A stretch of 64,000 nucleotides of DNA from Promethearchaeota archaeon (GTDB lineage Archaea; Asgardarchaeota; Lokiarchaeia; Sigyniarchaeales; SOKP01): the NCBI GenBank assembly GCA_019057865.1, contig JAHLWP010000019.1:1-64000 (forward strand), given 5' to 3'. Shown one piece after another: positions 11,648-52,836 of this stretch. Both the position numbers and the translations under genes were made by a program. Each line of letters begins with the position of its first letter. Position 1 is the first letter of the stretch. The notes beneath the pieces are model-generated. The model was not told where the DNA came from, did not search any database, and saw nothing but the letters and a program-made list of their open reading frames with translations.

Positions 11648-11670
11648 TCCCTCACCCGCGGTGCCCTCCT
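11648..11670 (+). repeat. Site A copy 1
   Basis: tccctcacccgcggtgccctcct, 3 bp after the stop codon; flanked by tttccc...gggaaa. Confidence 0.75.
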
Positions 11671-11821
11671 CATTACTTGGGAAATAGTAAGATTAAAGAA
11701 AAGATTATAGAAAATCTTAAAGGATTCTTGGATGTAGGGTTTTGATTAGAAATGAATATAAATATTTATTCGATTTTAGATTAATTAATTATAAATAAGA
11801 TAAAATGAAAGGCTTGATCGA

Positions 11822-12757
11822 GTGTCAAATATTCCAGATTTAATTAAATCTATTAAAAATACGATAAATAGAAAAGACCAATTAATAAAAAATCTCCAGA
11901 AAGTTATTGAAATTGCAGAAAACTATGAGCACGACAATGCAATCAACTGGGTAAGTTGGGAACTAAATGGTTATGATGATAAAGAATCAATTCCTCATTA
12001 TAGAAAAATAAATATTTTTGTCCATAAACATAGTTCTCCCTTTATTGCAGAGAGAAAATATGAAAAAACAGAATATTTTTTAAAATCTATCAAGGAAGTA
12101 ATTGAAAATTCTAAAAAGTATTTATCAACTTATAATACTACGAATATATGGGGAACACCCAAAACTCATTATATTAAAAAATCTGAATTTTTAGAAATAA
12201 TCGAGGGAGTCAAGAGAAAAATTAAAGAATACATCTCAAAAATATTAAAAGACCCAGATGATATTGAAGCGGATTTTAGTTTTATAGTTGAACAGAGTTA
12301 TCAAGAATATCAAACGAAATTAAGACAAGAAAAATTTGATCTTTTACTTGGAAAATTAGATTTATATTTGAAAGATAAGAAAGAGAAAGAGACTTTTTCA
12401 AAAAACTTGAGCACATTATTAAAGTTTGAATATGATAGGAATTACAAATTCTGTATGATTTTAATGGGAGCAATTTTAGAATTTCTATTAGTCAGATATT
12501 GTAGAAATAATAACATACCATCTGAACCTTATAACAATCGGAAAGGTGATACATTTGCTAATTATATCGAAGCTGCTATTAAAAATGATATTTTTGGGGA
12601 AAAAATGAGGTGGGTAATTGTACAATCACATCTTAGAGACTTTAGAAATTATATTCATATCCTTAAGGAAATTCGGAGTATAGAAATCGATGAAAAATGG
12701 TATGAAACTATTAAACCAGTGTTTGAAGTTCTTTATAATAAGTTTAAAGCTTCTTAA
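11822..12757 (+). CDS. AbiTii-like N-terminal domain + C-terminal HEPN/DUF4145-like domain
   Basis: WVSWELNGY....IPHYRKI (AbiTii-like); ILMGAILE and RNYIH motifs. Confidence 0.7.
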   Translation: MSNIPDLIKSIKNTINRKDQLIKNLQKVIEIAENYEHDNAINWVSWELNGYDDKESIPHYRKINIFVHKHSSPFIAERKYEKTEYFLKSIKEVIENSKKYLSTYNTTNIWGTPKTHYIKKSEFLEIIEGVKRKIKEYISKILKDPDDIEADFSFIVEQSYQEYQTKLRQEKFDLLLGKLDLYLKDKKEKETFSKNLSTLLKFEYDRNYKFCMILMGAILEFLLVRYCRNNNIPSEPYNNRKGDTFANYIEAAIKNDIFGEKMRWVIVQSHLRDFRNYIHILKEIRSIEIDEKWYETIKPVFEVLYNKFKAS

Positions 12758-12822
12758 TAAAAATCTTGTAAAAAGTAAAAGAATAGATAATATTTTTTAC
12801 CAATTTCCCTAATAATTGGTGC

Positions 12823-13180
12823 CTCCCTCCCCCGTGGAGCCCCCTCCTAAAAAAGTGGGGTGGAACTGTTCTAGAATAGTGTTATTTATTCAAGCTCATT
12901 ATTAATTACTATTTTAATCATCAAGGATTTCCAGATTTTAATAATAATTGAAGTAGGATGGTATTTCAGCTGAAAAAACAATAATGCGTTATTAAATCAG
13001 CTTATAGATATTGTGAATAGCTTAAAAATTAATGCTAACCTAAAAAGGACATAAGAAAGACATAACAAATATAAGAATTAGAAATTGTACGTTAATTGGA
13101 TTACTTTTGGCAATAACTTTCAAATATTATTGATTAAGTAAAGAATAAGTTTTTTTAAATTTTAACGGTTATTTCACGAA
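12823..13180 (+). repeat. ~357-bp A-B unit copy 1 (site A at 12823-12848; site B at 13166-13180)
   Basis: Nearly identical to 22151-22508 and 52481-52836; no ORF of note. Confidence 0.95.
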
Positions 13181-13304
13181 TCCCCACAAAAGCTAATCTA
13201 ATAATTATTTTATCCTGAATCTTAATTGTCTAAGAGTCAATTTACTAAAAACTTAGCTCTTATCTTTCAATAAATAGACAATTTGAGTTTACCTTTTAGT
13301 TCAG

Positions 13305-13319
13305 TAACCGTTTCACGAA
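13305..13319 (+). repeat. Site B' (TAACCG-TTTCACGAA, inverted core)
   Basis: Same arm as site B with the 6-bp core reverse-complemented; 139 bp after site B. Confidence 0.7.
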
Positions 13320-13465
13320 ATACTCTCCTGTAAAAATCTTGACTTCATTAATTAGCTCAGATTCAAGTGATTGAACTAAACATCCTCAAATAAAATTTTC
13401 ATTACATATTATTAACTCATGATTGCATGTTAAGATATATATCTTAAAAGAAAATATAAATAAAC

Positions 13466-14152
13466 ATGGCAAAAATTAATGATATTCTGAAATATAAGAA
13501 AATTTTTTTTTTAACTATTATAATTTTGGTAGAAATAATTTTATTAGTTTTATTTACAATCCTATTCATTACAACTAACATAGAATTTTATAATCTTATA
13601 GTTGAATCATTAAGAAATTTTATAATATTAACCAGTGTAGTAACCGCTTTAACTATCCCATTTGTAATGAAAGATATTGAAGAAAAGAAACGAGAAGTGG
13701 AGTTAAGAGATCGAATAGAAACAGTTATCAATGAACTTAAAAATTATTTTGAAATTATTATCTCTTCTAAATTTGATGGACTGCCAAAGAAAAATCTATA
13801 CATTCCTCCTCAATTTCAATTTTTTAAATCCATTGCTAAAAAAGAACCTGAATTCTTAAAAAAACTCGGTATCGATATTTCAATTTATACGAGGACTTCA
13901 AAAATTGGAACTCAATATGAAGGAGGTACTTTAATAATCCTGAATATTTATAGATTACGTGGTGGGAATCAACCAACTCTTGTTTTCATACGCACAGATA
14001 GTAAATTTTCTGAGTTACTGGGTTCATATGAAAATCTTCTAAAAAAAATCATTGAAAACGCAGAAAATAATTTCTCCATAACATTAGATAAAAATTTATG
14101 CTTATTATCAGATAATCTTAAATCAGGTTATATGGAAGTAACCAAAAATTGA
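13466..14152 (+). CDS. Hypothetical membrane protein (2 N-terminal TM helices)
   Basis: Two long hydrophobic stretches followed by a charged coiled segment. Confidence 0.65.
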   Translation: MAKINDILKYKKIFFLTIIILVEIILLVLFTILFITTNIEFYNLIVESLRNFIILTSVVTALTIPFVMKDIEEKKREVELRDRIETVINELKNYFEIIISSKFDGLPKKNLYIPPQFQFFKSIAKKEPEFLKKLGIDISIYTRTSKIGTQYEGGTLIILNIYRLRGGNQPTLVFIRTDSKFSELLGSYENLLKKIIENAENNFSITLDKNLCLLSDNLKSGYMEVTKN

Positions 14153-14283
14153 ACTTTTTATAACATAATTGCCTTAAACTGTCATTTATTCAATACTGTA
14201 TATCAGGATGAAGAACTTTGGATATACTAGAATTCTATTTAATTATTAAGATTATTTTTTTTTTAATAAATCTGAATTAACTT

Positions 14284-14880: not shown

Positions 14881-16095
14881 TTAATTTTTCTCCAAAAAAG
14901 CTATTAAATTTTCACCTAATCTAAACCCTATGCTATCTCCATAACCCAATAAAATCTCATTAAATATTTCTTGTAATAATCTTTGTTTACCTTCTTTACT
15001 ACTTAGTTCTTTAATAGTATAAATACGTTCAAAAGGTATAAAACTATTGTGTTGGAAATTAAATTTAGGTCTATTGTATATGAATTTTGGTTGAGGAGAA
15101 TATTTCCAATTCGAGATATTTAATACGCTAAAGATTATTTTTATTGCTCCAAGATACTTAAGTTTATTGAAAAACTTTGAGAGAAAGTACAAGAAACCTA
15201 GCACATAAGCTGACATAATTTGGACTGGTAATGTTTGGTTGTAGGGATCTTTTTTTAACCCATAACGCCAATCATAGAGAACCAATCCTTCCCTCTGGAT
15301 CAATATACTGCCAATCAAACTTGATGAGGATATATACTGAAGGCCTTCCCTAGTAACACTTAAATTATTAAAAATTTGAGTAGGAAAGGAATCAATAGGA
15401 GGTCCATTTTTTGTCTCTATTTCCAAATAATCTTTTAATTCTGAAATTTGCGGAATCTTAAATAATCCTCCTGTGTTAAGAAGGGGATAAGCTATAATTC
15501 TCATATTCAAATCACTTTTTACCTTTTGAGATGTTATATTTTGATCGAATTCTTTTTCTAGTTTTGTTAACTTATTAAATATTGCTTCTTCATCGACATG
15601 AGCTCTAGATTCCTCTAAATATTCAACTTTTGATTTTTCTTTTGAATATTGAGCCTTTAAGTAATTGGTAGGTTCCACTGTTTTAGCTTTTTCAATGATT
15701 CCTACCTCTTTTAATATTATTTCGGTTAATCGTACATATTCAATAGCAAATTCTGGTCTAATTCCTAATGTTATTGATTCTGACCTATGTTGAAATAAAT
15801 TCCTTTGATCATGCAGTTTTTTAATTCCTTTATCATATTGGGGGACATTAGGATAAAGGGGGCTTAAAATCTCTTTGTACAATTTCGGGAAATCAAAAGT
15901 TTTTTTATTTCCTTTACTTGAAATTGTTTGATATGTTAAGCTCTTTTCTTGAGCAATAAAAATACAGATCTTAGAAATCAAATTATCTACTAAATAATGA
16001 CTCAGTTCACTCAAGATTAGTTCATTCGATTTAGAAAATTCTAAAGCTAATTTATATAAATTAATGAATACTTCATATTCTGCTTTTCTATTCAT
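14881..16095 (-). CDS. Protein with N-terminal HEPN-like domain
   Basis: LHDQRNLFQH (RxxxxH); C-terminal domain not recognised. Confidence 0.6.
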   Translation of the reverse strand: MNRKAEYEVFINLYKLALEFSKSNELILSELSHYLVDNLISKICIFIAQEKSLTYQTISSKGNKKTFDFPKLYKEILSPLYPNVPQYDKGIKKLHDQRNLFQHRSESITLGIRPEFAIEYVRLTEIILKEVGIIEKAKTVEPTNYLKAQYSKEKSKVEYLEESRAHVDEEAIFNKLTKLEKEFDQNITSQKVKSDLNMRIIAYPLLNTGGLFKIPQISELKDYLEIETKNGPPIDSFPTQIFNNLSVTREGLQYISSSSLIGSILIQREGLVLYDWRYGLKKDPYNQTLPVQIMSAYVLGFLYFLSKFFNKLKYLGAIKIIFSVLNISNWKYSPQPKFIYNRPKFNFQHNSFIPFERIYTIKELSSKEGKQRLLQEIFNEILLGYGDSIGFRLGENLIAFLEKN

Positions 16096-16347
16096 GATAA
16101 TTTTAACTCTTCCAATGTTAAAATTGATGGACTTCTAAATTTCCCTTTAAAAATTATTATTTATACTAATGAATACATTGATATCGTCAAGACTATTAAT
16201 CTTAATTGTATTAGTATAGCCTGATTCGTGAAAGGGATTCTTGAATCCTATCGAAATAATTTTCATTTTTAATCAGTTATATTACTTTTTTGTCTTATTA
16301 TTCAATAAAACGAACAGAAATATATCTTTTTCCCTATTTTCTCCTAT

Positions 16348-16373
16348 CTCCCTCCCCCGTGGTGCCCCCTCCT
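16348..16373 (+). repeat. Site A copy 3
   Basis: ctccctcccccgtggtgccccctcct, exact consensus. Confidence 0.9.
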
Positions 16374-16603
16374 AAAAATTACGAAAAAAATTATTTGAAG
16401 GAACTAATTATTTCTGAACATATTTCTTCAGAAGTGTTATCTTTTATGTAATCTAAAAAACATTCAGGGTCTAGTTTTTGATAAGAAATTTTGAACACTT
16501 ATCACATTGATAATAAATGTGATCTTATTTAGTAACAATCGAATTTTAATTATTAAAGATCATAATAAGGGATCTAAAAAGGCAAAAATAAGCATATAGG
16601 AAT

Positions 16604-17176
16604 ATGAATATAATGAAAAAATTAAATAATGATAAGGTTGCAGTTATAGATATTGAAACAACAGGGAAAATACAAGAAAGTGATTTAATTCTTGAGATTG
16701 GAATTGTTGAATTAAGCTTACTAACTGGTGAAACTAAGATTCTTTTTAATTCATTAGTAAAGGAACCTAAATTTGGGGAAGAACATAGGGACACATGGAT
16801 TTTTGACAATTCAGATCTCAAATTTGAAAATATTGAAAATGCTCCACCATTTGAAAATTTAAAACAGAAAATAAGCGAAATTTTCAATCAATACCCAATA
16901 ACTGCATATAATAAAGCTTTCGATCTTGGTTTTTTAAAAGCTAGAGGGATTAATGTCCCCAAAGAATTACCATGTATAATGTTGACAGCACAAAATGTTT
17001 TAAAAATTCCATATAAATATGACAGCTCAAGATATAAAAAGCCTAATGTTCAAGAGTCTTGGGACTTTTTCTTCCCAAATAATGAATACACTGAAAAACA
17101 TAGAGCTGTAGATGATGCTAACCATGAAGCTAAAATTCTTTTTGAATTATACAAACGTGGACATTTTCTTATTTAA
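16604..17176 (+). CDS. DEDDh 3'-5' exonuclease (DnaQ-like)
   Basis: ExoI IDIETTG, ExoII AYNKAFD, ExoIII HRAVDDA. Confidence 0.9.
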   Translation: MNIMKKLNNDKVAVIDIETTGKIQESDLILEIGIVELSLLTGETKILFNSLVKEPKFGEEHRDTWIFDNSDLKFENIENAPPFENLKQKISEIFNQYPITAYNKAFDLGFLKARGINVPKELPCIMLTAQNVLKIPYKYDSSRYKKPNVQESWDFFFPNNEYTEKHRAVDDANHEAKILFELYKRGHFLI

Positions 17177-17314
17177 GATAAAAAGAAAAAATATTTTATT
17201 ATATTTATAATCCTCAACATGTTCTACTCTCATTTTCTGTGTAAACTCGATTATAGTTTTCATAATGCTTTTTTCTATTGTCATTCAGAATAAAAATAGT
17301 CATAATTTTTTTTT

Positions 17315-17340
17315 CTCTCTCCCCCATGGTGCCCTCTCCT
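17315..17340 (+). repeat. Site A copy 4
   Basis: ctctctcccccatggtgccctctcct (3 mismatches to consensus). Confidence 0.85.
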
Positions 17341-17595
17341 AGAAAAGTAGGAAAAATTAATTCAAATTTTATTTCGGATAAGATGGAAAGTCAGTGATTA
17401 TGATAAGTGCTCATTTAGGATATGAAAATCTTTTAATAAATCAATAGTCGTTAACAGAAATTTTGTTTCTTAATAAAATTTGAATATCTTGCTTTTAAAT
17501 TTCACCGCTAAAGAGAAAATTAGATTCAAATCAATCAGAATTACTTAATTCAAATATTTTTTCAAAATTGTCGACCAATGGCTCGGGTAAAGTTT

Positions 17596-17982
17596 TTACG
17601 TTGCCAATTTCACTTTTCCATAGTAAGTTTTCCAATTTTCTTCATTTAATAATTCTACATCTTTGACTTTTCTTAAACTATATTTAAAAAATTTCCTTCT
17701 TAAACAGAGAACTAGGATATTACTATTAAGAGCTGTCTTTATCTCATCAAAAACCCCTTTTCCAATATGATTCTTAAGCTCTGAAACAACTAATATATCA
17801 GAATTTTTGACAGCTCTAAAATATGGTTCCATTTTTGTAGTATCATCCCATATAATATCTGTATTTGGATTAAATATCGAAGAAAATTTCTTTCTGAGGA
17901 ATCTTAACTCTTTTTTTTCTCTTTTAGTATTATAAATTAATATACTATGGGCATAATATACGTTGACCATTATTCTTCTCAT
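17596..17982 (-). CDS. Nucleoside 2-deoxyribosyltransferase-like protein
   Basis: VYYAHS, IFNP, SDILVV, IGKGVFDEI..A motifs of the NDT-like fold. Confidence 0.65.
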   Translation of the reverse strand: MRRIMVNVYYAHSILIYNTKREKKELRFLRKKFSSIFNPNTDIIWDDTTKMEPYFRAVKNSDILVVSELKNHIGKGVFDEIKTALNSNILVLCLRRKFFKYSLRKVKDVELLNEENWKTYYGKVKLAT

Positions 17983-18068
17983 TCAATACCAATTTTTCAA
18001 TAGAATTTCTAAAACTCATTGGAGCTATTTCAAGAATTGTATATGATCTTTATAAAAAAAATTCAATT

Positions 18069-18236
18069 AATTCTGAAAATAAACCTTATTTTGAATTTTT
18101 AGAAGCTTGTGGAAAAGAGATAAGAAATTATCTTGAAGAACACCCAGACTTTAAAAATATATATCAAGGTTCGGATATTGTAAATGCGCTCGAAGAATTA
18201 TATAATGTTCTAAAAAAGAGTCTTATTGAGGAATAG
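18069..18236 (+). pseudogene. 3' gene remnant
   Basis: Open frame NSENKPYFEFLEACGKEIRNYLEEHPDFK...LIEE* without a start. Confidence 0.45.
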
Positions 18237-18333
18237 TAAATATCTAGAAATTAAACATTTAGGATTCTACACTAAATGATGCTAAGTCAAAATATATTAA
18301 TACACAAAAACATCGAAATTTAGTTCAAACTAT

Positions 18334-18359
18334 CTCCCTCCCCCGTGGTGCCCCCTCCT
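18334..18359 (+). repeat. Site A copy 5
   Basis: ctccctcccccgtggtgccccctcct, exact consensus. Confidence 0.9.
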
Positions 18360-18538
18360 GGAAAAGTAGATAAGGAAAAGATGTAAAGGTACGGATTATT
18401 TATTTCCCTTTGAATTCTTCGTAATCAATAATATTAAATAATAGGATTAATCACTAATTCTATTTACTCTTTAACAATAAAGTAGAAAAATAATATGAGG
18501 ATTTAAAGAACTAATGAAGATAAGTAGGTTAGATTCTC

Positions 18539-19411
18539 ATGTCTTTAGGTGTTAAATTAAAGAGTATTTCAGAATATTATCAGCAACAAATTACATTGGT
18601 AATGGATGTATTGTTTTCAACATATTATATTTTAAAAAATGAATATATTAAAATTAGAGATCTTTTAAGTAGCGAGGATTATCAAAAGAGATATACGGAA
18701 TACTTAAAAATAATAGATCAACTTGAAAAGAGTGCTGAGGGAACTGGGATATATTTATCTGAGCAACACCAAGATATGTTAGAGAAACACCGCGAAATGA
18801 GATTGAATATCCCGAAATCAGAACACTTAATGAATATGACTCTTGTTTATCTCATGGCTCTTTTTGAAGGTTTTAATAAAAACTTGTTTCTAACTTTGCT
18901 AATGAATAGGCCTGAACAAATGAAGAATAGAAAAAAATCAATTAATTATGAAAGATTATTAGAATTTAATTCTCTTGAAGATTTACATAAACATTTAGCA
19001 GAAAAAATTACAAATGAATTAGGATACAAGGATATTGATGAGTTTAATAATTTTTTATCAGAGCAGTATAAAATAGATTTAAATAATAAGTTTAAAAATT
19101 GGGAAGCTCTAAGAGACAATTATTATAGGAGAAATATCATAGTTCATAATAATGGTCGTATTTCTGAATTATGCATTAAAAAGTTAAATATATCACCAGA
19201 CCTTTTAAATAGTAAGCCTATTATGAATATTGATTACTTAGCTGAAGCTTCTAATAACATTAAAACCTATATGGATTTCATTTTCACATCTATTAAGGAA
19301 AAGTTCAAATTAAACACATCAGTAAGAAGATTTGCACCATTTCCTCCTAATTTTAATAAGCCAATGGTAGTCAAAAGGGGAAAAGATGAAATTTTCAATA
19401 ATGAGAAATAG
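18539..19411 (+). CDS. HEPN domain protein (RiboL-PSP-HEPN-like)
   Basis: LVYLMALFEGF and RRNIIVHNNG motifs. Confidence 0.75.
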   Translation: MSLGVKLKSISEYYQQQITLVMDVLFSTYYILKNEYIKIRDLLSSEDYQKRYTEYLKIIDQLEKSAEGTGIYLSEQHQDMLEKHREMRLNIPKSEHLMNMTLVYLMALFEGFNKNLFLTLLMNRPEQMKNRKKSINYERLLEFNSLEDLHKHLAEKITNELGYKDIDEFNNFLSEQYKIDLNNKFKNWEALRDNYYRRNIIVHNNGRISELCIKKLNISPDLLNSKPIMNIDYLAEASNNIKTYMDFIFTSIKEKFKLNTSVRRFAPFPPNFNKPMVVKRGKDEIFNNEK

Positions 19412-19651
19412 AATGCGAAATTAAATACATAACCGACCATCTGCTTCAAGCTATTGATTTGAATTTAATTCTAAATAATATGAATATTCAAAGAGATAAA
19501 TATTTTCAAATATCCATAAATAGTCTCAAATATCCATAGTAAATTGAAATCCTACTGATTTATTCTAGCTGTTATATATCTTTAAATAAATAGCAAATAA
19601 TAAATAAAATTGAACCCCATTAAGAATATAGATATTAACTGGTGAGATCGT

Positions 19652-22105
19652 ATTTCAGCTGAAATTATTTTATTTTATATTGATATTCTTGGGTATGAAG
19701 AAAGATACGAGGAATTGGGAGAGATTATTGGTAAAAAACCTGAATTTATTAGGACTGAGAACTTAGAAATTATTAAGGATAAACTTAATGAGTTGGAAGA
19801 TATTTATGAATTTCAACGAATTGGTGATTCAGAAAAAGGAGATGATTTTTTATTAGCTTTTGAACTAAAGGAAAATTCAAATCCAATAGATATAATATTT
19901 GAGTTTTTAATCGATTTATTAGAACATGAGACGGGCTACATTAAGGAGGAATATAAAAAAATCCCATTGGAAATTGCTTTTGGATTGGTCCAAATCGAAA
20001 AGCCATTGAGGGAAGTAAAAAAACCGCTCTCTACTCTTTCAGGTATAATTTCCCTTCTTAAAGAAAATCTCCCAAAAAGGTTTAGGGATTGGTTAAAAGC
20101 ATCTAGCAAAAATCGGTTGAAAGACACATTTATTGTCTTTACAAATGATGTATTCAAGAAATTACATCCCCATGATCAAATTTTATGCCATGAAATTCTA
20201 ACAACACCACACCCATTTTATTCTATTGATCTCCTAAACGCTATTGAATTAGGACAAAAAAAGAAATTTTTAACGATTTTAGGTTATAAGGATAATGAAA
20301 TAATAAGAAATATTGATTGGGTGTATGAACCACCATTTAATTTTTCTGAGATAAAAGAAAAATTACAAAATGAAAATGTAATAGTATTATCTGGAATACC
20401 CGAATATGGGAAAACATTTACCGCTATTAGACTATTATGGGAATTTTACATAGAAGGTTTCGAACCCAAGATAATCAGTCATAAAGAATCACCAAATCGC
20501 TTAGAAGGATTCCTCGAGGAGTTAAAACCCAATATGATTATCTATTTTGAAGATCCCTGGGGTCAGTACTTTTACGATAGAAATAAATTGTTAGAGAGAG
20601 AAATCAGATCGATTATATCTTCATTTCAAGAATATGAAAATCTTTATGTTATAATAACCTCAAGAGAGGATATATTTACAAATTTTAAAGAACACAGTAG
20701 TCCTTTTATGGATTATGAACCTTTATCAACGTCTTTGAATTTAAGTGAAACATGTTATGATATTAAAAAAAGGATTATAATTTTAAACAGATATGGTGAA
20801 TTATTCCAATGTGAATGGTTCAAAAATTCAAAAACAAAAAAAAAACTTGAGTTAGCTATGGAAAGTTCAAATTATCTATTAACTCCATTAAGTATTAAAA
20901 TATTTAGTATTCTAACCAGAAATGAAGCGGAATTGGATGAATTAATTAACGAAATGAAGAAGTGTTCTAAGGAAGTACTAAATATTTTTATTAAAAATTT
21001 CGAGGAGATGGAAAGAACCCATAAAATCTTTCTTGCTTTACTCTTCATTTGTGAGTATCTAAAGCTTGATAAATTTAGAGAGCTTTTTTTTGCAGTAATA
21101 GAATCATTGGATATTGAAAAAGAAGCAATTTTCGAAAATATACTGAATAAATTTGAAAAAAATAAAATATTAATAAAAGAATCGGACAATATCGGGTTCT
21201 CACATCCATTATATGTTGAATGTCTGGGAGAGGCAATTTTTCATGGCTCTTCAACTTTTAATGATATCTTTAAAAATGTTATTAATGAATTCTATGAAAA
21301 AGAAATTGCTAGTGAATGCTTTGCCTATATCTTAGCTCGATATCCTCAAGAATTTGAGGAAGATTTTTCTTTAAGTGTTATTGAGAATATGTTTGAAAAA
21401 AAACAATTACCATGGAGCGCAATTTCTTATTTAGATAACAATTTTGATAAATTTACAAAAGAAAACCAAACCAAAATGCTCAATAGGATGTTTAAGGAAA
21501 AACATTATTTTCCTTTAGGCTTATATGTAGTTGGGAACCATTATAATCAAATCCCCCCTAATATTCTTGAATTATGCTTACAGGGTTCAAAAAATGAGGA
21601 TAATTATTTTGATGTTTTCGATTTTCTTAAAAGGAATTATTATAAGTTTGATGATCAATTTAGAGATGCCTTAATACTAAGTTTATCTAAATTTGAGTCA
21701 AATGCAACGACATTAGTCGATTTTTTATTAAAACTCTAACGTACAAATTATAAAAATGAAAAAACTAAATATAGTGAGATAGTTTTTAAATTTTTTGAAA
21801 CTTCAGATGAATACTTCAAGCAAATCTCATATTTATTCTTGAAGTATTTACAATATATAAATACAATTGATAGGGATAAATTTTTTGCACTAATTAAGAC
21901 TCGACCACATATTTTAAGAGAAATTTTAATACATATTTATGATCACTTTGATTTATTTAATAAGGCTGATGTCATCGTTTTTCTGGGAGTAATGACTGAA
22001 TTACAAGATGAAACTATTAATGAAATTATAACACATATTTATGAGAGTAATCAAGATAAAATGAACGGGGCTCATAAAGATTATCTGTTGTCAAAAATTA
22101 GATGA
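19652..22105 (+). pseudogene. Class III nucleotidyl cyclase-like domain + nSTAND3-type NTPase + helical repeats, split by one in-frame TAA (21737-21739)
   Basis: Frame extends 5' of 19715 to an ATT after GGTGA, giving ...IILFYIDILGY...EKGDDFLLAF. Walker A GIPEYGKT; Walker B YFEDPWG. ORFs 19715-21739 and 21839-22105 share a frame that is open between them. Confidence 0.65.
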
Positions 22106-22150
22106 AATTTTGTAATCAAAAAAATTTTTCAATACCTTGAATTCTACTGT

Positions 22151-22508
22151 TTCCTCTCCCTGTGGTGCCCCCTCCTAAAAAAGTGGGGTGGAACTGTTCT
22201 AGAATAGTGTTATTTATTCAAGCTCATTATTAATTACTATTTTAATCATCAAGGATTTCCAGATTTTAATAATAATTGAAGTAGGATGGTATTTCAGCTG
22301 AAAAAACAATAATGCGTTATTAAATCAGCTTATAGATATTGTGAATAGCTTAAAAATTAATGCTAACCTAAAAAGGACATAAGAAAGACATAACAAATAT
22401 AAGAATTAGAAATTGTATGTTAATCGGATTACTTTTAGCAATAACTTTCAAATATTATTGATTAAGTAAAGAATAAGTTTTTTCAAATTTTAACGGTTAT
22501 TTCACGAA
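22151..22508 (+). repeat. ~357-bp A-B unit copy 2 (site A 22151-22176; site B 22494-22508)
   Basis: Differs from copy 1 by only a handful of substitutions. Confidence 0.95.
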
Positions 22509-22629
22509 GCCTATGGAATCAGAATGTTTTTCCTATTTTCTTCAGAAGTTTGACGCCATTTTGCAGATAATTAATTCGAAAAAATTGTTTTTAACAAAAT
22601 AAAATTACATCTTATTAGATTTAATTGGA

Positions 22630-30860: not shown

Positions 30861-30911
30861 TTTGAACCCTCTTAAATGGAATCATTCATTATAATCTTGA
30901 CTAAAATAAAC

Positions 30912-34544: not shown

Positions 34545-34565
34545 AGAAATAACCTCATAATTTAT

Positions 34566-36617: not shown

Positions 36618-36635
36618 CCTAAAGCACCATTACTA

Positions 36636-39113: not shown

Positions 39114-39115
39114 TC

Positions 39116-42100: not shown

Positions 42101-42724
42101 TCTCTCAATAAGCAATTTCATATTTCTAAATTCTTCCCAAGGCTGACCTTGTATTTTTTGGATAGTTTCTTTAAATTCTTCAAATTTTCCTTTTTGTATT
42201 AGATCTTTTTCAAGTTTAGCAATAAAAATATCTGAACTAAATCCCTGACTTATTAAAAATTGCTTATAAAAAATGATTGGCATCTCATCCTCTCTTACTT
42301 GACCCGCTTCTGCACCTATTTGGAACATAATTATATTGTTTTTAGAGAAGTTCCTAATCTGATGTAAATAGCCTTTAATCTCATTTTCTTTTGGGGTTCC
42401 TGCTAAAATTCCATTGAATCGGTCAATAGCTTCAATATCGTTTATATTTCTATTAGATAAAAGAATACCACAAATTTTTGCAAAATGTGATTTTCCAGAT
42501 CCAAAGTCACCTGAAATCCATACACCTACATTATCTGATTTCATTTGAAAACTATTAGTAAACGCTTCAAAATAATCAATAATTAATGATTCTAACATAT
42601 CAGTCAAGATATATTCATCTATCTCTTGAAGAATGTATCTATCATCTGATACCTTAATAACTGATTGAATTTTTCTATCTATATCGTAATAAAAAATATC
42701 TTTAACTTTTGTAATAAACCTCAC
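39116..42724 (-). CDS. brxC: BREX P-loop ATPase BrxC
   Basis: DIDRKIQSVIKV, WISGDFGSGKSHF, VDEVGQF, YPFLPYQ. Confidence 0.93.
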   Translation of the reverse strand: MRFITKVKDIFYYDIDRKIQSVIKVSDDRYILQEIDEYILTDMLESLIIDYFEAFTNSFQMKSDNVGVWISGDFGSGKSHFAKICGILLSNRNINDIEAIDRFNGILAGTPKENEIKGYLHQIRNFSKNNIIMFQIGAEAGQVREDEMPIIFYKQFLISQGFSSDIFIAKLEKDLIQKGKFEEFKETIQKIQGQPWEEFRNMKLLIERSIGEALYEIFPGKFSSIDDAKKEIEKIRKLSNPTISDIAKELNEFLVKKSEEDSSKIHNLVFIVDEVGQFIGSSDKKLLDLQSMVEEFGRIASGRIWVVVTAQASLSEIISSVKKKEAEYKRLKARFDARLHLTSENLEEVIEKRILKKKEQSKEELKETYSKFKGKLTNLSIIEGTNRPLKKLNEDLFISYYPFLPYQIQITQSIFLALKPLNGKTHKFTAERSMIGVTHGVFNPKKTNIENEKIGRLVTMDEIYDQIEVDLPPNIKTEIGQLKGRLVESIEISKILKIIYLLSRLEWIPLTSENITKMFNKYIDSDFNSQKSQIKAVLKELIDEKYIIEEDNNYKYITGVKKQFETRVGEVIVKTLEKRQTTVEFLNEIISPFNKLRHEAINEFYLTTYSDENLKSKKGEVSIHFFSPLSLELDDITTDKALQESYSNPYSIYWLSSENQNFEKDIDKLIRIDKVIKERRLSNISLEEEQILKEKSIIAQKLRNNIETQLKSSLRNGKIVHDGDLIDLTGDSSSDLNNIFSKNILEILFKIYTKYKIAAYKVDQTSIKKILNPRIKNLHEVEEELDLFDTDNNINLYNQIIDEILTYIKYQLEISNILPGKEVIEHFQKIEYGWNPILVRFIISSLFRAGIISIEKDGKIYYDSKVKAVEGFFFDMNKFKKLLIRYEEEEVIELRDRRKCLQDLKIIFTIESMDTINDLSINIASSLKSFSQDYNITKAHLKSSKIKIKEKFGRIPEFYEEVKVFVKPSKVVRYFLDNSEEIKENKNYYEKVKDFINQDKIVMFDKILKISPKLEIRSFDIDSNLINEYETFHEEINLINNNAETIEKWGDVNKSYNSLISIYKDIYQKMHEKRFEEYTELIEELKESEDLKDQIKPETFKSYSEQFCKKFKWDQESYICENCKTELSKMDNHILALDRERTKLIKQLSPKTPIGPNVIDLRIQSVIKKKTIKSNDDIENLIEKIRSKLEELLKKYDQIHLK

Positions 42725-43281
42725 CCTATTGGATATGTTCTATATGTTGAATCACTTGAATATTTTCCAAAAAATAAAATCTCTTCTTCATCTGTTGCAT
42801 AATCTTTAATATATTTCCCTGGGTAAAAAAAAACTGTAGGAATCTCAATATAGTTTAATAATTTATCAACAATGTCAGAAGTTCTATAAAATGGAATTAT
42901 TGAACCAATTCTTGTAATAAATAACACCTCAATTTTGTCTTTAATCCGATTTAATATATATTCTTTGATTTTTTGATTGTAAATTTGAGAGATTCCTCTA
43001 ATAAATTCATCCAGGTCATTTTTTTCTTTTTCAAAAACATCCTCTAAAGAATTATATTCTGCTAGAATATCAAAAATAAACGTGTTTAGGGGAATTTCTA
43101 ATACTTTAATATTTTTAGATTTTAAGAAACCAGATAATTCCTTAACCTTTCTTCTGCATTCCATTTCTTCATAAGGATCATATACAAATAAAATAAATGG
43201 AGCACCAATTTGTATATGGAAGGTGTCTCTATCATTTAGGAGCATATTTTCCAAATATTTAAATTTCTCTTGTAAGTTCAT
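42721..43281 (-). CDS. brxB: BREX BrxB (DUF1788)
   Basis: PFILFVYDP.EE, PFYR, VFFYPG.Y; overlaps neighbouring genes. Confidence 0.85.
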   Translation of the reverse strand: MNLQEKFKYLENMLLNDRDTFHIQIGAPFILFVYDPYEEMECRRKVKELSGFLKSKNIKVLEIPLNTFIFDILAEYNSLEDVFEKEKNDLDEFIRGISQIYNQKIKEYILNRIKDKIEVLFITRIGSIIPFYRTSDIVDKLLNYIEIPTVFFYPGKYIKDYATDEEEILFFGKYSSDSTYRTYPIG

Positions 43282-44029
43282 TTATAATATCCTCTAAATT
43301 TTTATTTTCATACAATTCTTCGAATGAATCATATGTTGTATTTAAATCTAGTAAACTTTTTCTAATACAAATGTTGATTAAATCAATTATCTCATTCTTA
43401 TCTAAAATAAATAATTTAAAATCTTCATGATCTAACACTTTTTCAAGCAATTTCAGTTGTTTCTTTAAGGAAAATATTAAAAATAATATTGCTTCTATTG
43501 GAATTTCAGGTTTATTTAAAATCTTTAGTTTGGAACCATTTAAAAATTGAAAATCTTTCATAATAGACAAATAATGCCTTGCTAATCTAATATTTGTAGT
43601 AACTGACCATTTCAGTATTTCTGGATGTTCTTTTTCATTCTTTTTAAAAAATTCTTGTATGTTTTTAGTATTTATTACCTGTAAATTCGAAATCATCATA
43701 TTATATAATAATTTAACTGTGATATCATAGACTAATTCATCAGCTTTAGCTAATTTATAAAAAATTAAATAATTTTTAGCGGAATTAGAAACATTGGCAG
43801 AATTGAGAAAATTTGTTAAGTTCATATCAATTCTGGGATTTGAAAAAAAACGTTTACTTAAACTTCTAAAAACTGCTTGCCTAGTACTTAATGATCTAAT
43901 TGAAAGTATATTATCATTAATTATGGAAGATTTAATCTCATCTATAGTTGTATCTTTGTTAATCAATTTGAAGATTCTTTTTGTTTCATCAATAAGAGAC
44001 CTAGCTCTGTTTATATCAGTTTTATACAT
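43259..44029 (-). CDS. brxA: BREX BrxA (DUF1819)
   Basis: NILSIRS..TR, WS.TT..RL; first gene of the operon. Confidence 0.8.
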   Translation of the reverse strand: MYKTDINRARSLIDETKRIFKLINKDTTIDEIKSSIINDNILSIRSLSTRQAVFRSLSKRFFSNPRIDMNLTNFLNSANVSNSAKNYLIFYKLAKADELVYDITVKLLYNMMISNLQVINTKNIQEFFKKNEKEHPEILKWSVTTNIRLARHYLSIMKDFQFLNGSKLKILNKPEIPIEAILFLIFSLKKQLKLLEKVLDHEDFKLFILDKNEIIDLINICIRKSLLDLNTTYDSFEELYENKNLEDIINELTREI

Positions 44030-48256: not shown

Positions 48257-48280
48257 CTCCCTCCCCCGTGGTGCCCTGCT
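48257..48280 (+). repeat. Site A copy 7
   Basis: ctccctcccccgtggtgccctgct; tcccccg pairs with downstream cggggga. Confidence 0.88.
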
Positions 48281-48377
48281 AATTCCTCGGGGGAAAAATT
48301 TTGTTTTAATAAACCAATTTTTTTTAAATTTCACTTAGTCCAAAATGTAATATACATAGATAATTAATATATTTAGT

Positions 48378-49511
48378 ATGAGACAAAAAACTTTATTTAT
48401 ATTTGGAGCTGGAGCTTCTAAGGCTGATAGAGCACCCTTACAAAACGAACTTTTTTCTGGAATATTTAAATTGTTAGAAGGAGTTAAAAATTATCAAGAT
48501 ATTCAATTGAATCAAGCTTTCATTCAAGAACTAAAGGATTTCTTATATAAATTATATCCGATTAATGAAGAACCTAAAAATAACATTATTTATCCTACCT
48601 TTGAAGAAGTAATGGGATTGATTCATTTTGCAATCATAAGAGACGAGAGTTTTATGGGTGTTCATTATAAAAATTTAAGCGGATATTTAGATTCATTAAT
48701 TACTCTTATTGCTAATATTTTAGATAAGAAATTAAAAAAAGCACCTGGAATAAATAAAAAGTTCATAATGTATCTATATGAATCCTTTAAAAGAAAACAA
48801 AAGAGTATTGATGATAATGAAGTTATAAATGAATTCATAAATCAAAATCTCTTTCTTAATGTAAATTACGACATACTTCTCGATAGTGCACTGTATAAAC
48901 TTGTTAAGAAATTTAAAAAGGGTGTAGATTATTGCGAGGAAATTCATAATCCTTACCCTCAGAAAAAAAAAATAAGATTGTTTAAACCTCACGGGTCATT
49001 AAATTGGTTACTGTGTAAATCTTGTGGTAAATTTATATTAGGGGGCGAGAGAAAAATTGCAATGAGTTATTATAACCCAATTTCTACTAATTCCGATCCT
49101 AATATTCAATGTGATTTCTGCGAGACCATTTTATCACCTCTTATTGTACCTCCTTCATTCTTTAAAGAATTACATAATAAATTAATACGAAATGTATTAA
49201 TAAATTTGGAAAATCATCTTAAAGAAGTGGAAAATTTGGTTTTCATCGGATATTCGTTTCCAGAAGCCGACCTCCATTTAAAATATCTCTTTAAAAAAGC
49301 ACAGTTATTAGGAGGATTCAGGAAAATATTACTAATTAATAAAAAAGACAAAGATAAAAAAAAAGAAGATAAACCTTACTATTATAATGTTAAGAGATCA
49401 TTTCCAGGAGTGGATTTAATAGATTTAACTTATGAAATTCCTCTTCCTAATGGTTTAGAAGAAGATTCTATTGAAGCTATTGTAGAAAAAATTTCTGAAA
49501 AATTATTTTAA
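48378..49511 (+). CDS. SIR2-family protein (putative NADase) with Zn ribbon
   Basis: FGAGAS, NVNYD, KPHGSLNW, CKSC/CDFC, IVPP, FIGYSFPEAD. Confidence 0.88.
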   Translation: MRQKTLFIFGAGASKADRAPLQNELFSGIFKLLEGVKNYQDIQLNQAFIQELKDFLYKLYPINEEPKNNIIYPTFEEVMGLIHFAIIRDESFMGVHYKNLSGYLDSLITLIANILDKKLKKAPGINKKFIMYLYESFKRKQKSIDDNEVINEFINQNLFLNVNYDILLDSALYKLVKKFKKGVDYCEEIHNPYPQKKKIRLFKPHGSLNWLLCKSCGKFILGGERKIAMSYYNPISTNSDPNIQCDFCETILSPLIVPPSFFKELHNKLIRNVLINLENHLKEVENLVFIGYSFPEADLHLKYLFKKAQLLGGFRKILLINKKDKDKKKEDKPYYYNVKRSFPGVDLIDLTYEIPLPNGLEEDSIEAIVEKISEKLF

Positions 49512-49529
49512 TTTTTCTCTCTCTGGTGT

Positions 49530-49552
49530 CTTCCTCCCCCGTGGTGCCTCCT
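49530..49552 (+). repeat. Site A copy 8
   Basis: cttcctcccccgtggtgcctcct, ~20 bp after the SIR2 stop. Confidence 0.85.
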
Positions 49553-49698
49553 AATTATTTGGGGTAAAATTATGTTGAATTTTTAGAAATTTAATTTACT
49601 CCAAAAAATTAATATGATTAGGATTAACAATTAGTTATTTAAGAGGTTGAAAATAAGTATATAGACTAATGAAATAATAAATAATATAGTAAAAAAAT

Positions 49699-50637
49699 AT
49701 GACAGAATTTGAAAATGAATTAAAAGTTGTTAAACAAATCTATCAACATTCTCTAAGCCACATTATAGATGATAATAAAGCAAATAAAGTTATTTATATT
49801 CTAAATCTCCATTGGTGTGTTGAAGATATTATCAGATTGGCGACTAAGGGATGGTCTAGCATTAAATATAACGATACATTTAATAAAATCTTGGATAAAT
49901 TTAATAGAAAAAATCCAATGGACCCTAAAATAATAAATAAAGTTTTAAAATTAAATGATATAAGAAATGGAGTATATCATAAAAATATTCTTCCAGATTT
50001 TTCAGAGATAAAAGCACTCCTCCCGTTTGTTAAAAAATTTATTGAATGGATAAGTAAAAGTATTTTTAATTATAGTCTAAATCTTGATTTAAAATTAGAA
50101 CCTGATTTAATCTTATCCTTTAAATCTGAGGCTATAATTAACACTATTGCTCTAAATCAACTGAAAAAGAGTAGAAAATATAAAAATTATTATGCTGTTC
50201 AATTATATCTACATAACATTGGATTTTCTCCTTACACATCAATCGATATTAAATTAAATTCTTTAAAGTATAAAGAGATAAATTATAATTATATAGAAAG
50301 AATAGAATCTAAGATACAACCAGAACCCTCAATGGAGAAGAATGCTTACACATATTCGACTTCTCAGATAGAAGCTCTTAATAATATTCTGATTGGAATA
50401 AGAGAAAAGTATGTCAAAAGAGCTTTAAATAAAAAATCCATAAGAATTAATAGAAAAAAGAAAATGGTAATTTTTCGAAATATTGAAAAAGTTAAGCATA
50501 ATGATTTTAAGAGACTTGATCGATTTATGATTTATATCCCAAAGATTTTCTTGAATGATGATATAGTATTAAATTACACAATGAATTTTGACCAACTAGG
50601 AGGATACGAACCTCAAATTTTACATATAATTAATTAG
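49699..50637 (+). CDS. Protein with N-terminal HEPN-like domain
   Basis: LHWCVE and LNDIRNGVYH motifs. Confidence 0.6.
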   Translation: MTEFENELKVVKQIYQHSLSHIIDDNKANKVIYILNLHWCVEDIIRLATKGWSSIKYNDTFNKILDKFNRKNPMDPKIINKVLKLNDIRNGVYHKNILPDFSEIKALLPFVKKFIEWISKSIFNYSLNLDLKLEPDLILSFKSEAIINTIALNQLKKSRKYKNYYAVQLYLHNIGFSPYTSIDIKLNSLKYKEINYNYIERIESKIQPEPSMEKNAYTYSTSQIEALNNILIGIREKYVKRALNKKSIRINRKKKMVIFRNIEKVKHNDFKRLDRFMIYIPKIFLNDDIVLNYTMNFDQLGGYEPQILHIIN

Positions 50638-50720
50638 TATTACATAATAAAATTTTGAATTTATTTAACAATTCAACGGAACGGATTAACATATATTTTT
50701 TCCCCATTTACCCCGATAAT

Positions 50721-50747
50721 TGGTGTCCCGCCATGGTGCCCTCTCCT
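50721..50747 (+). repeat. Site A copy 9 (degenerate)
   Basis: tggtgtcccgccatggtgccctctcct; preceded by ataattggtg as in copy 2 and followed by aagtagg as in copy 4. Confidence 0.75.
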
Positions 50748-50946
50748 TAAGAAGTAGGTGTAGAACGATATCAAGTTAGAGAATATTAAAAATTATTAAG
50801 ATATTTTTTTAATTAACTGTTTTTCCAGATTTTTTGAATGATATATTAAATATGGTATTGTATCAATGATATAATAAAAAAAGAAAGTTATTATACAATA
50901 TGAATATCTCATTAAAATTAAATAATATAGTTTCGTAATTTTCCAT

Positions 50947-52359
50947 ATGGAAAGCTTGCTAAAATGTATTGAAGAGGACATTCAATACATATTAAACCAC
51001 CCAAAAATAAAAGAAATCAATTATTATTTGAAAAAAAATACCACTATACATATTGAATATAGTCTTCTCTTCGATATTTTAGACGAATTGAAAAAAGAGA
51101 AGAAACAAACGGTTCTAATTGAAGAACGAATGGATTTATTAGTGAATACTCTAAAAGATTTTGATATAGAAATTGACTTGTTAAATAATATATCCATTAT
51201 TTGGGAAAATTCGATAAAAACTGGTCCTCTAAATTTGCAACTTCTATTCAACTTATATAGTTATCTTGTTGAAGAATCTATTCAAAAAAAACTCTTAATT
51301 CAAGAAGTATTAGAACTATCTTTGGAACAATTGAAATCTAGTATTCAAAACAATATTATATCTGTAGATATCTATATTGAACTAAAAGGTATTTCTTTAG
51401 AAAATGAAGAATTCAAAATTGATGATAATATTGAAATTTTAAAACCTCAACAATTTATTACTTTCAAAAAAGAAGGATTTGAAACGGATTTTCTTTCTAT
51501 TGAACCTTTATTAAGATATAAAACCAAAGACAAAATTTATTTTAATAAAAAAACAGGACCAAGGCATATTAACAGCTTCTATCGTAAGGTAACCCCATCT
51601 TTGATCAATGATTGGCGTTTAAAAGAAACTTTAATAAATGAATTCATTTTTAGCCTTTATCTTAACGGATATTCATTTTCATATAAGAAATTGGTTTCTT
51701 TACCTCCTTGGTGGTTAAGAAATATGAGCAAGTCTAAAAAGATTACTGTATCTTACTTAGGGTCTGGTTTTTCATTAAAAAAACCTGAGAATGAACAAAG
51801 AGTAGCGATTAATTATGATGATATGATTCATAAAGAGGATATAAAAATCATCAGAGAATTACACAATTTAATTAAGAGATCGCAAATTCTTAGGAAAAAA
51901 TCATTTTCTTTATTAATTCACAGATATTTTCAAATGTTTGAATATGAAAGCTTCCAAGATATGATTCTTAATGAATTTATTATATTAGAATCAATTTATA
52001 CTTCTGGCAATAAAAGTGAAATTATATTTAGACTTTCACTGAATATCGCTTTTTTTCTTGAAGAATCAATTGAAAAATTCAAAGATACATTTCAATTTAT
52101 TAATGATGTATATTCTATCAGAAGTAAAATTATTCACGGAGATAAATGGAAAAACCTCCTTAATAAAAATAAAATAAAAAAGCATTTTGAAGAATCAAAT
52201 AATGAAATCATAGCAAGAAACATTTATATAGAATTAAAAAAAATCATTGATAAAACCTTTATTAAAATTATGCACTGGGAGATTGAAAACCAAAAAAGTT
52301 TTTTTGAAAGTGCTCATGGTTTATTTTTTCTTGAAAATTGTAATTTTCTTAAAAAGTGA
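50947..52359 (+). CDS. ApeA-like HEPN domain protein
   Basis: IILESIY...EI.FRLSL..A, YSIRSKIIHG. Confidence 0.75.
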   Translation: MESLLKCIEEDIQYILNHPKIKEINYYLKKNTTIHIEYSLLFDILDELKKEKKQTVLIEERMDLLVNTLKDFDIEIDLLNNISIIWENSIKTGPLNLQLLFNLYSYLVEESIQKKLLIQEVLELSLEQLKSSIQNNIISVDIYIELKGISLENEEFKIDDNIEILKPQQFITFKKEGFETDFLSIEPLLRYKTKDKIYFNKKTGPRHINSFYRKVTPSLINDWRLKETLINEFIFSLYLNGYSFSYKKLVSLPPWWLRNMSKSKKITVSYLGSGFSLKKPENEQRVAINYDDMIHKEDIKIIRELHNLIKRSQILRKKSFSLLIHRYFQMFEYESFQDMILNEFIILESIYTSGNKSEIIFRLSLNIAFFLEESIEKFKDTFQFINDVYSIRSKIIHGDKWKNLLNKNKIKKHFEESNNEIIARNIYIELKKIIDKTFIKIMHWEIENQKSFFESAHGLFFLENCNFLKK

Positions 52360-52480
52360 AGACAAAATATTATATTAGAATTTACCCAATTCAATTTTAT
52401 ATTTACTTAATTACATTTAATTTTCCTATTTTATAGAAAAAAATCATATCTCACCCTTCTAATTCTTTTTTTACTATTAT

Positions 52481-52836
52481 CTCCCTCCCCCGTGTTGCCC
52501 CCTCCTAAAAAAGTGGGGTGGAACTGTTCTAGAATAGTGGTATTTATTCACGCTCATTATTAATTACTATTTTAATCATCAAGGATTTCCAGATTTTAAT
52601 AATAATTGAAGTAGGATGGTATTTCAGCTGAAAAAACAATAATGCGTTATTAAATCAGCTTATAGATATTGTGAATAGCTTAAAAATTAATGCTAACCTA
52701 AAAAGGACATAAGAAAGACATAACAAATATAAGAATTAGAAATTGTACGTTAATTGGATTACTTTTGGCAATAACTTTCAAATATTATTGATTAAGTAAA
52801 GAATAAGTTTTTTTAAATTTTAACGGTTATTTCACG
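52481..52836 (+). repeat. ~357-bp A-B unit copy 3 (site A 52481-52506; site B 52824-52836)
   Basis: Nearly identical to copies 1 and 2. Confidence 0.95.

Follow-up and report, generated by a model that had tools for sequence, protein, structure and literature searches.

The defence island and its site A copies

The window analysed here is a stretch of 64,000 nucleotides from a Promethearchaeota archaeon (G000:C34:1-64000), taken from a metagenome-assembled genome (MAG, G000) of 87 contigs and 4.26 Mb, with 29% GC and 99.7% completeness. Contig C34 starts with rps13-rps4-rps11 (913-2363), and the remainder, from roughly 2.4 kb up to the contig end at 70.7 kb, is a defence island. The island genes include DUF4238, several HEPN-type genes, Cap4-nuclease/nSTAND3, AbiTii, a DEDDh exonuclease, RiboL-PSP HEPN with nSTAND3, Schlafen/AlbA_2, EVE, AbiJ, SIR2, a complete BREX (bacteriophage exclusion) system with two pglX, three type IIG restriction-modification genes, an HD-domain protein and an N4/N6 methyltransferase. 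Several of these genes are separated by copies of a short GC-rich sequence, site A, which is the subject of this analysis.

Ten copies of site A occur in the window, from 11648 to 52481, all on the + strand, all intergenic and all GC-rich in surrounding DNA of 25-29% GC, as a preliminary description of this DNA had stated. They form three runs (11648-12823, 16348-22151 and 48257-52481; Table 1), each of which closes with a site A followed by a 360-nucleotide (nt) element. The same description placed nine sites 3-140 nt after the stop codon of a + strand gene, and this holds for eight; the genes upstream of 16348 and 18334 (14881-16095 and 17596-17982) lie on the - strand. Its gene labels are supported by Pfam for AbiTii, the DEDDh exonuclease, SIR2 and the HEPN-STAND pair (RiboL-PSP HEPN with nSTAND3), and Pfam also supports AbiJ; the genes it called HEPN (49699-50637) and ApeA-like (50947-52359) match nothing in Pfam or PADLOC. 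Neither tRNA genes nor Rfam families were found in the window by tRNA and Rfam scans.

Table 1. Site A copies, enclosed units and 360-nt elements in the window (ORF, open reading frame; bits, weight-matrix score).
Feature	Position	Strand	Remarks
ORF upstream of copy 1	10844-11644		stop 3 nt before site
Site A copy 1	11648..11673	+	18.9 bits; left arm degenerate; right half type 2 (CTCCTCATTACTTGGG)
Unit 1	11674..12822	+	AbiTii-domain gene 11822-12757 (Pfam)
Site A copy 2	12823..12848	+	GTGGAG core variant; 67.8 bits; ends run 1; left end of 360-nt element
ORF-less element after copy 2	12849..13181	+	sharp end in promoter-like block ...TTTTTTTAAATTTTAACGGTTATTTCACGAA
Site A copy 3	16348..16373	+	exact consensus; upstream gene 14881-16095 on - strand
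Unit	16374..17314	+	DEDDh (RNase_T) exonuclease gene 16604-17176 (Pfam)
Site A copy 4	17315..17340	+	3 mismatches; 58.8 bits
Unit	17341..18333	-	one reverse gene 17596-17982, 128 aa
Site A copy 5	18334..18359	+	exact consensus; 72.1 bits; upstream gene on - strand
Two-gene unit	18360..22150	+	RiboL-PSP HEPN 18539-19411, nSTAND3 NTPase 19715-21739, then 88-aa ORF
Site A copy 6	22151..22176	+	left arm degenerate, right half exact; 46.3 bits; ends run 2
360-nt element after copy 6	22177-22509
Site A copy 7	48257..48282	+	left arm and core exact; right half type 2; sole significant hairpin
Unit	48283..49529	+	SIR2-like gene 48378-49511 (Pfam)
Site A copy 8	49530..49555	+	type 2 right half
Unit	49556..50720	+	312-aa gene 49699-50637; no family match
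Site A copy 9	50721..50746	+	left arm degenerate, right half kept; 17.9 bits
Unit	50747..52480	+	470-aa gene 50947-52359; no family match
Site A copy 10	52481..52506	+	GTGTTG core variant; 70.4 bits; ends run 3
360-nt element after copy 10	52507-52839

Sequence and structure of site A

Five of the ten window copies match the 26-mer CTCCCTCCCCCGTGGTGCCCCCTCCT within 3 mismatches, against an expectation of 0 from 100 dinucleotide-preserving shuffles. In a logo of 58 distinct instances the conserved block spans about 40 nt and reads TTAY-CTCCCTCCCCC-GTGGTG-CCCCCTCCT-RAAAAAGTAGG, with a tract rich in pyrimidines and poor in G on its left and an A6 run on its right side, which reads T6 for convergent transcripts. 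When 58 to 152 distinct instances, drawn from over 30 species, are compared, invariance exceeds 90% at positions -6 to +19, and there is no conservation past -10 or +30. The spacing of the site is 11-6-9/11. Its C-rich arms form a mirror repeat with 8 to 11 matching positions; because of this mirror symmetry, a reversed-pattern control of the genome search matched equally well. The opposite strand carries the G-tracts GG, GGGGG, GGGGG and GGG, and from its sequence the formation of a triplex, i-motif or quadruplex is conceivable. An 18-nt internal period in copy 2 (GGTGCC...GGAGCC), recorded in the preliminary description, is also visible.

Folding as single-stranded DNA is not a general property of the site. 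The preliminary description proposed that several copies fold, and this is borne out for the copy at 48257 alone, which is significant against shuffles (z = -3.6); the other nine fold no better than shuffles (z -1.05 to +1.5), and the two exact-consensus copies are unstructured, with minimum free energies of 0 to -0.6 kcal/mol. An R''/R' box pair of the kind that defines attC spans the site at none of the copies. The absence of both hairpin and boxes agrees with the earlier statement that site A is not an attC.

Gene 3' ends lie 3-60 nt from site A on either side and gene starts at least 67 nt away, so the units are compact and, judged from this layout, seem to carry their own promoters. Among 110 nearest upstream genes, 71 are in the orientation of the site and 39 against it; the co-orientation of sites therefore does not simply follow gene orientation. 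Adjacent site pairs are co-oriented in 27 cases and opposed in 1 in the genomes of the genus, and in 73 versus 2 over all loci, some of which are redundant.

Distribution of site A

A weight matrix built from 127 site instances scores the ten window copies at 18-72 bits. Scanning both strands of the whole 4.26-Mb genome with it gave only one match outside the window, C56:13550(-), for a total of 11 sites on two defence contigs. The motif is thus restricted to islands and not genome-wide.

Among 61 relatives, the 26-mer (at most 3 mismatches) was found in 22 genomes, all of one genus, where the 13-nt core (at most 1 mismatch) is present in 32 of 54 genomes with 1-8 copies each; about 40% of the genomes of the genus have no match. 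A class-wide search with the core extended the range to other low-GC genera of the same family. In a search of 185,579 species, each represented by one genome, about 45 of 50 matches were MAGs of Promethearchaeota/Promethearchaeia, one match was labelled Hermodarchaeota, and 5 were chance matches in high-GC bacteria. Core matches in a neighbouring family (G039, G041, G043, G045) were rejected: the five checked, from G039 and G041, are due to chance because they sit in DNA of 54-64% GC. Of 80 metagenome loci listed, 41 are low-GC contigs with the full site, mostly from marine sediment. Two scans of IMG/VR viral contigs yielded no true site A and only chance matches in high-GC contigs, and a viral or plasmid attP was accordingly discarded as the source of the site. 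True site A is confined to low-GC Promethearchaeota (Loki-type) MAGs of one family and to marine-sediment contigs.

Site A loci are several and dispersed within a genome. In isolate 33X4 (G123), which belongs to a different genus of the family, 15 copies that all point the same way extend over 43 kb (G123:C78:60157-102845), so the array in the window is not the largest. A tRNA-Gly gene lies about 9 kb upstream of the 33X4 array (L238-L240).

Homology breaks, recurring units and hybrid sites

In 140 cross-locus blast alignments, 77 of 526 uncensored ends of high-scoring pairs fall within 40 nt of site A, where 1.5% would be expected. This excess serves as supporting evidence only, because the ends are not independent and the loci were picked for holding sites. 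One unit combines a 76-amino-acid (aa) ORF with a PIN-domain gene, interpreted as a toxin-antitoxin pair of the vapBC type, and four species share it with about 88% identity. In all four the DNA left of its left site is unrelated and the left site itself shows no more than one change; two species have a perfect right site, one has a degenerate copy and one has none, and the DNA past this point is unrelated between species. A PIN_2 unit behaves in the same way, recurring as a whole, with the sites as its limits, among unrelated neighbours. The HEPN part of the 18360..22150 unit is 86% identical in 33X4, where it has other neighbours.

Empty and occupied states of the same place also occur. In 33X4 a single site A joins the homologue of the left flank of 16348 to the homologue of the right flank of 18334, and at the comparable place the window has 1,986 nt with two units (DEDDh; 128-aa gene) and three sites. 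Likewise, G068:C66 has one site where MAG BC3 has two sites 337 nt apart, and the outer flanks match. The gain and loss of genes between sites, with breakpoints at the motif, predicted in the preliminary description is therefore seen among relatives both as recurring units and as empty-versus-occupied pairs.

The strain-level comparison was made with assembled contigs, and contig joints with fewer than 31 nt on one side of the site were taken as artefacts of the repeated site and not counted. In run X3 (2015, marine sediment) a strain is 99% identical over 16345-22111 and departs exactly left of the site at 16348. A contig from run X6 carries the HEPN unit (about 93% identical) behind a site A with about 3 kb of other upstream DNA. 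In the source sample, a contig connects 11646 directly with 12825, so that the AbiTii unit is missing; its depth is about 20, whereas the main form has about 250. Because this contig aligns to the upstream gene in pieces only, it more likely represents a co-occurring relative than a deletion within the same clone.

The sites themselves are frequently hybrid. In a census of 152 distinct instances, 115 are complete and 37 combine the left arm and core with another right half; a common second ('type 2') right half, CTCCTMATTACTYGGGGRAAAATTAT, is found in 11 of the 152. The right half is swapped abruptly, directly after GTGGTGCC, in 26 of the 152 instances. Left arms, over the same set, degrade through point changes only. 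A rule by which the type 2 right half comes first in a run is true for each run of the window and was dropped, as it fails in other arrays. The three elements that close the window runs have a related structure: each consists of GCCCCCTCCT (the right half of the site) and 350 nt in common, with 97-99% identity, and the left halves of their sites differ (5/16 positions in copy 22151). Hybrid right halves and 360-nt elements with differing left halves together point to an exchange just 3' of GTGGTGCC.

The cargo of these units is consistent with the defence genes seen in the window and extends beyond them. Pfam counts over 150 non-redundant site-adjacent proteins are LRR 11, PIN 4, ParE 3, AAA_15/AAA_21 3 and MazE 2, and many of the proteins have no family match. 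The stockpile of antiviral genes proposed earlier is too narrow as a description, since relatives add toxin-antitoxin genes, LRR genes and genes of no known family. Such a cargo (PIN and ParE toxins, MazE, defence ATPases, HEPN, SIR2 and LRR proteins) is typical of cassette arrays.

Site A as a probable recombination junction

We read site A as the junction (crossover) site of a gene-cassette recombination system, with a probability of roughly 60%, because it is restricted to islands, conserved above coding sequence, co-oriented and duplicated around units, and because its hybrids share one breakpoint. The observation made in the preliminary description is confirmed and its interpretation supported. 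Of the distinct cassette-capture system envisaged there, gain and loss at the motif stand; capture by a dedicated recombinase would be a further step, for which no cognate enzyme was found.

According to the proposed mechanism, units of one or few genes with their own promoters would enter and leave variable islands through recombination at a double-stranded site of about 40 nt, the exchange presumably taking place just 3' of GTGGTGCC. A putative circular unit bearing one site would insert into a resident site and thereby come to lie between two co-oriented sites. Repeated insertion would build co-oriented arrays, and recombination between two sites would remove or transfer a unit. The reaction, which we take to be conservative and site-specific, would be catalysed in trans by an enzyme not encoded beside the arrays. 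Candidates are a recombinase that has escaped recognition, an enzyme supplied by a mobile element present only transiently or, with lower probability, host XerA. A more specific version would be an integron-independent, Loki-type platform for self-expressed defence, toxin and LRR units, with a double-stranded C-rich site of 40 nt that is mirror-symmetric and unstructured, exchange across genera, and either an unrecognised recombinase or XerA re-targeted by an unknown factor; taken as a whole it is put forward tentatively, with less than even odds.

Several findings weigh against recombination at site A. The core sites of tyrosine and serine recombinases are normally dyad-symmetric, and site A lacks such symmetry, with an inverted-repeat match at only 1 of 11 arm positions. 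No match to PF00589 occurs on C34 or C56, and thus no tyrosine recombinase of G000 lies on a site-bearing contig. With five tyrosine-recombinase seeds, phmmer gave no match in the window, the rest of C34 (L001), the first 20 kb of C56 (L002) or the 60-kb region of the 33X4 array. Recombinase and transposase families are absent from the 25 commonest Pfam families of the 150 site-adjacent proteins, and by PF00589 the XerA-like enzyme stands alone in most site-bearing genomes of the genus, including the single-contig G006. No circular form of a unit was seen among the assembled contigs, which by their nature do not reveal circles. Finally, alignments would likewise stop at the element if it were conserved for a different reason and merely anchored homologous recombination.

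This last point leads to the foremost alternative, which we consider unlikely: site A may be kept for another function, as a bidirectional terminator or insulator, a protein-binding boundary, or an H-DNA, i-motif or G-quadruplex former, and shuffling would be a by-product of homologous recombination or template switching between copies of 26-40 nt. The close approach of gene 3' ends from both sides with starts kept at a distance, the A6 run (T6 for convergent transcripts) facing a pyrimidine-rich, G-poor tract, the mirror repeat with its G-tracts on the other strand, and the fact that no recombinase was found are all compatible with this. However, nowhere else in the genome does the site occur, not even in any housekeeping operon, and about 40% of the genus lack it; this weakens the terminator or boundary version, because an element of such general use would not have so narrow a range. 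Nor does such a function account for co-orientation at 27 to 1 whatever the gene orientation, and an abrupt right-half swap at one point, with units between duplicated sites, fits site-specific exchange better than homologous recombination over 26 nt.

Less probable still is that site A is a specific target duplicated on insertion, in the manner of a CRISPR (clustered regularly interspaced short palindromic repeats) repeat, by a transposase or casposase-like integrase with a 26-40-nt stagger, in which case the free unit would carry no site. One site when empty and two sites around an insert is a signature of target-site duplication too, and arrays that grow in one orientation would agree with it. 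Yet adjacent sites often differ in their core (GTGATG/GTGGTG in G076:C155; GTGTTG/ATGGTG in the window), hybrid sites with replaced right halves are common, the units have no terminal inverted repeats, and the transposase genes of G000 amount to two of IS4-type DDE, with no rve, Y1, TnpB or IS110.

There is also little to recommend the view that the site A copies are att scars, left behind as integrative elements accumulated in tandem and lost their integrase genes, with a 1.75-kb element or a C82-type integrase (both described below) as the surviving autonomous member. Seven of ten copies of the former lie less than 6 kb from site A and a homologue is present on C79 of G000, and a C82-type integrase is found 1.1 kb from a site in metagenome contig L090; but the 1.75-kb element has its own sharp TGAATTG ends, unrelated to site A, and occurs in 8 of 54 genus genomes versus 32 with sites, C82-type genes are never on site-bearing contigs of the genus, and the site matches no tRNA or conserved gene end.

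A classical integron, or a cluster of attC sites lacking an integrase (CALIN), with divergent attC is very improbable: the literature does report integrons that have genuine attC sites in Asgard MAGs (Ghaly et al., 2022, PMC9668308) and the co-oriented, mostly one-gene units have a fitting toxin-antitoxin and defence cargo, but nine of ten copies form no hairpin, none has an R''/R' pair, the sequence rather than the structure is kept, IntI is absent and the loci are several and dispersed per genome.

The search for a recombinase and for other element signatures

As the preliminary description noted, the window contains no recombinase; moreover, no cognate one was found in the rest of the genome or beside the arrays of relatives. 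PF00589 identifies four full-length tyrosine-recombinase genes in G000, a XerA-like one on C87 and others on C82, C79 and C27 (the last below the family cut-off), together with one broken copy, a fragment on C82. A join of the site-bearing contigs to a recombinase contig was sought through shared ends, and C34 and C56 are not among the best 30 shared-end contig pairs. G000 has no serine recombinase, Y1 (PF01797), TnpB (PF07282), IS110 (PF01548) or rve gene, and its two IS4-type DDE genes lie away from the arrays. Site A occurs singly, without an inverted partner, and the units lack terminal inverted repeats. By these results the site is no recognisable end of an insertion sequence (IS) or a miniature inverted-repeat transposable element (MITE).

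The 1.75-kb element encodes a NikA-like ribbon-helix-helix protein and a tyrosine recombinase, and its copies in G026, G062, G016 and G061 are 82-94% identical (L038 8-1719 and 12453-14163; L253 2317-4030; L254 4271-5983). The homologue in G000, at C79:41198-42079 (L048 5172-6092), has 45% amino-acid identity and lies at a contig end. As the source of the cognate enzyme the element was rejected on account of its own ends and its narrow distribution, and it is read as a separate element sharing the islands, where 7 of 10 copies are within 6 kb of site A. The C82-type integrase was set aside for its single co-occurrence with a site.

Other origins of the site were also rejected. The best local alignment of site A to 30 tRNAs predicted by ARAGORN, which may have missed some intron-bearing tRNAs, is at background level. 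Derivation from the GC-rich 3' end of rps11 gave a score of 9, against a mean of 7.6 and a maximum of 13 for a GC-rich background. The CRISPR repeat of G000 (C22, C70) is unrelated to site A, and copies of the site are spaced by 0.3-4 kb with genes enclosed, unlike the 25-50-nt spacers of CRISPR arrays.

At the island border beside rps11 lies a gene pair (2405-4583, -) that comprises ORF544 and a DUF2695-like zinc-ribbon protein. Pairs resembling ORF544 and the zinc-ribbon protein directly precede site A in G077 and G026. ORF544 (2949-4583, -) was considered as a hidden recombinase and rejected, as it has no match in Pfam, PADLOC, PDB or Atlas; its relatives occur at two other arrays only. A possible HNH-like motif (ERHH...N...HINH) was seen by eye.

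Other repeats and genes of the island

The element of about 360 nt that begins at the sites 12823, 22151 and 52481 contains no ORF. It always comes after a site A, continues for about 335 nt past it and stops abruptly in a block of 91 nt that has a TATA-like box some 25 nt short of the end; this tail also stands by itself at window positions 63708-63798. Further copies of the element are found on C56 (L002, 13213-13300, -) and in L040 (G012:C45:42000-61999; 13690-13952). Each copy has different DNA beyond it. Since one copy points at the 3' end of a convergent gene, a working promoter is not a sufficient description of the element, which may represent either another type of junction or an 'empty' unit.

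A direct repeat of about 358 nt (5056-5413 and 7688-8045, 85% identity) comprises the 3' half of a winged helix-turn-helix gene with downstream DNA and flanks the DUF4238 and HEPN genes. G012 has the repeat only once, at the orthologous position, and beyond it the islands differ. The pattern suggests that DNA also entered this island by another, different mechanism.

The BREX system, of type 1, occupies 27201-44029 (-), between runs 2 and 3. Its two full-length pglX genes (27201-30860 and 30912-34256) share 74% DNA identity.

The second defence contig, C56, encodes an AAA_15 ATPase, a DEDDh exonuclease, a NACHT-STAND protein and a type I restriction-modification system. Genome G012 (L040) matches the rps11 border of the island (window 1949-5222) with 93% identity and then has other content, and the type I restriction-modification genes of C56 are found on its border-bearing contig with 98% identity. 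Because G012 unites the border and the C56-type genes on one contig, C56 may belong to the island of C34, the two contigs being parts of one island.

Comparison with known systems

To our knowledge, no well-understood machinery other than the integron stockpiles and shuffles single genes. Recent work in bacteria has shown that integrons act as banks of anti-phage genes. If the recombination reading of site A is true, cassette-based immune libraries would have arisen more than once, here in the archaeal lineage closest to eukaryotes, and a recombinase of an unrecognised kind would be at work. The system would account for variable defence islands in slow-growing sediment archaea with very few transposases, and site A would be a common currency for swapping immunity genes across genera. 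The 40-nt site would also provide a sequence tag for mining Asgard metagenomes for new defence and toxin genes. We found no publication on site A or on a comparable non-attC cassette system in Asgard archaea.

The hallmarks of IS200/IS605 and IS110 elements are missing, as G000 has no TnpA (Y1), TnpB or DEDD transposase and the site no subterminal hairpins, and so are those of MITEs or IS ends, since no inverted partner exists and no transposase family is enriched beside site A.

Successive units split by direct att repeats, many without an integrase of their own, are also known from cis-mobilizable elements (CIMEs) beside integrative and conjugative elements and from the tycheposon arrays of Prochlorococcus. 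The islands with site A are likewise arrays of units between direct repeats. In CIMEs and tycheposons, however, the repeat corresponds to the 3' end of a conserved gene, for instance a tRNA gene, and some members are autonomous and bear an integrase; site A, by contrast, has no match among tRNAs or gene ends, and its arrays yielded no autonomous member.

The dif/pdif modules of Acinetobacter plasmids and the integrative mobile elements exploiting Xer (IMEX) resemble the site A arrays in having short gene modules, a site of 26-28 bp and no dedicated recombinase nearby, so that a host Xer enzyme would act in trans. The 11-6-9/11 spacing recalls dif, and the site-bearing genomes have no recombinase in common other than XerA. 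Sites of the XerA type consist of 11-bp imperfect inverted repeats around a 6-bp spacer (PMC2958812), whereas the arms of site A match as inverted repeats at 1 of 11 positions and are of the mirror type instead. Furthermore, pdif sites alternate in orientation, in contrast to the co-orientation of site A copies (27 vs 1).

There is a close likeness to integrons, the sedentary chromosomal ones in particular, and to CALINs: the arrays are co-oriented, mostly with one gene per unit and one recurring site between units, the units are gained, lost and exchanged between species with breakpoints at the site, and toxin-antitoxin and defence genes make up the cargo. Like CALINs, most arrays have no adjacent integrase; as CALINs also lack intI, its absence alone does not exclude a CALIN. 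The differences concern the site and its setting. An attC is a hairpin of 55-140 nt with R and L boxes, whereas site A has about 40 nt and is conserved in sequence, unstructured and mirror-symmetric. Neither IntI nor attI nor Pc was found at the site A arrays, and the units, with at least 67 nt of upstream DNA, apparently have their own promoters, either gene orientation being common. In addition, the loci are several and dispersed per genome, and one site sequence is shared across genera. The system is therefore integron-like in its outcome but is not an integron, and is built on a site of a different kind.

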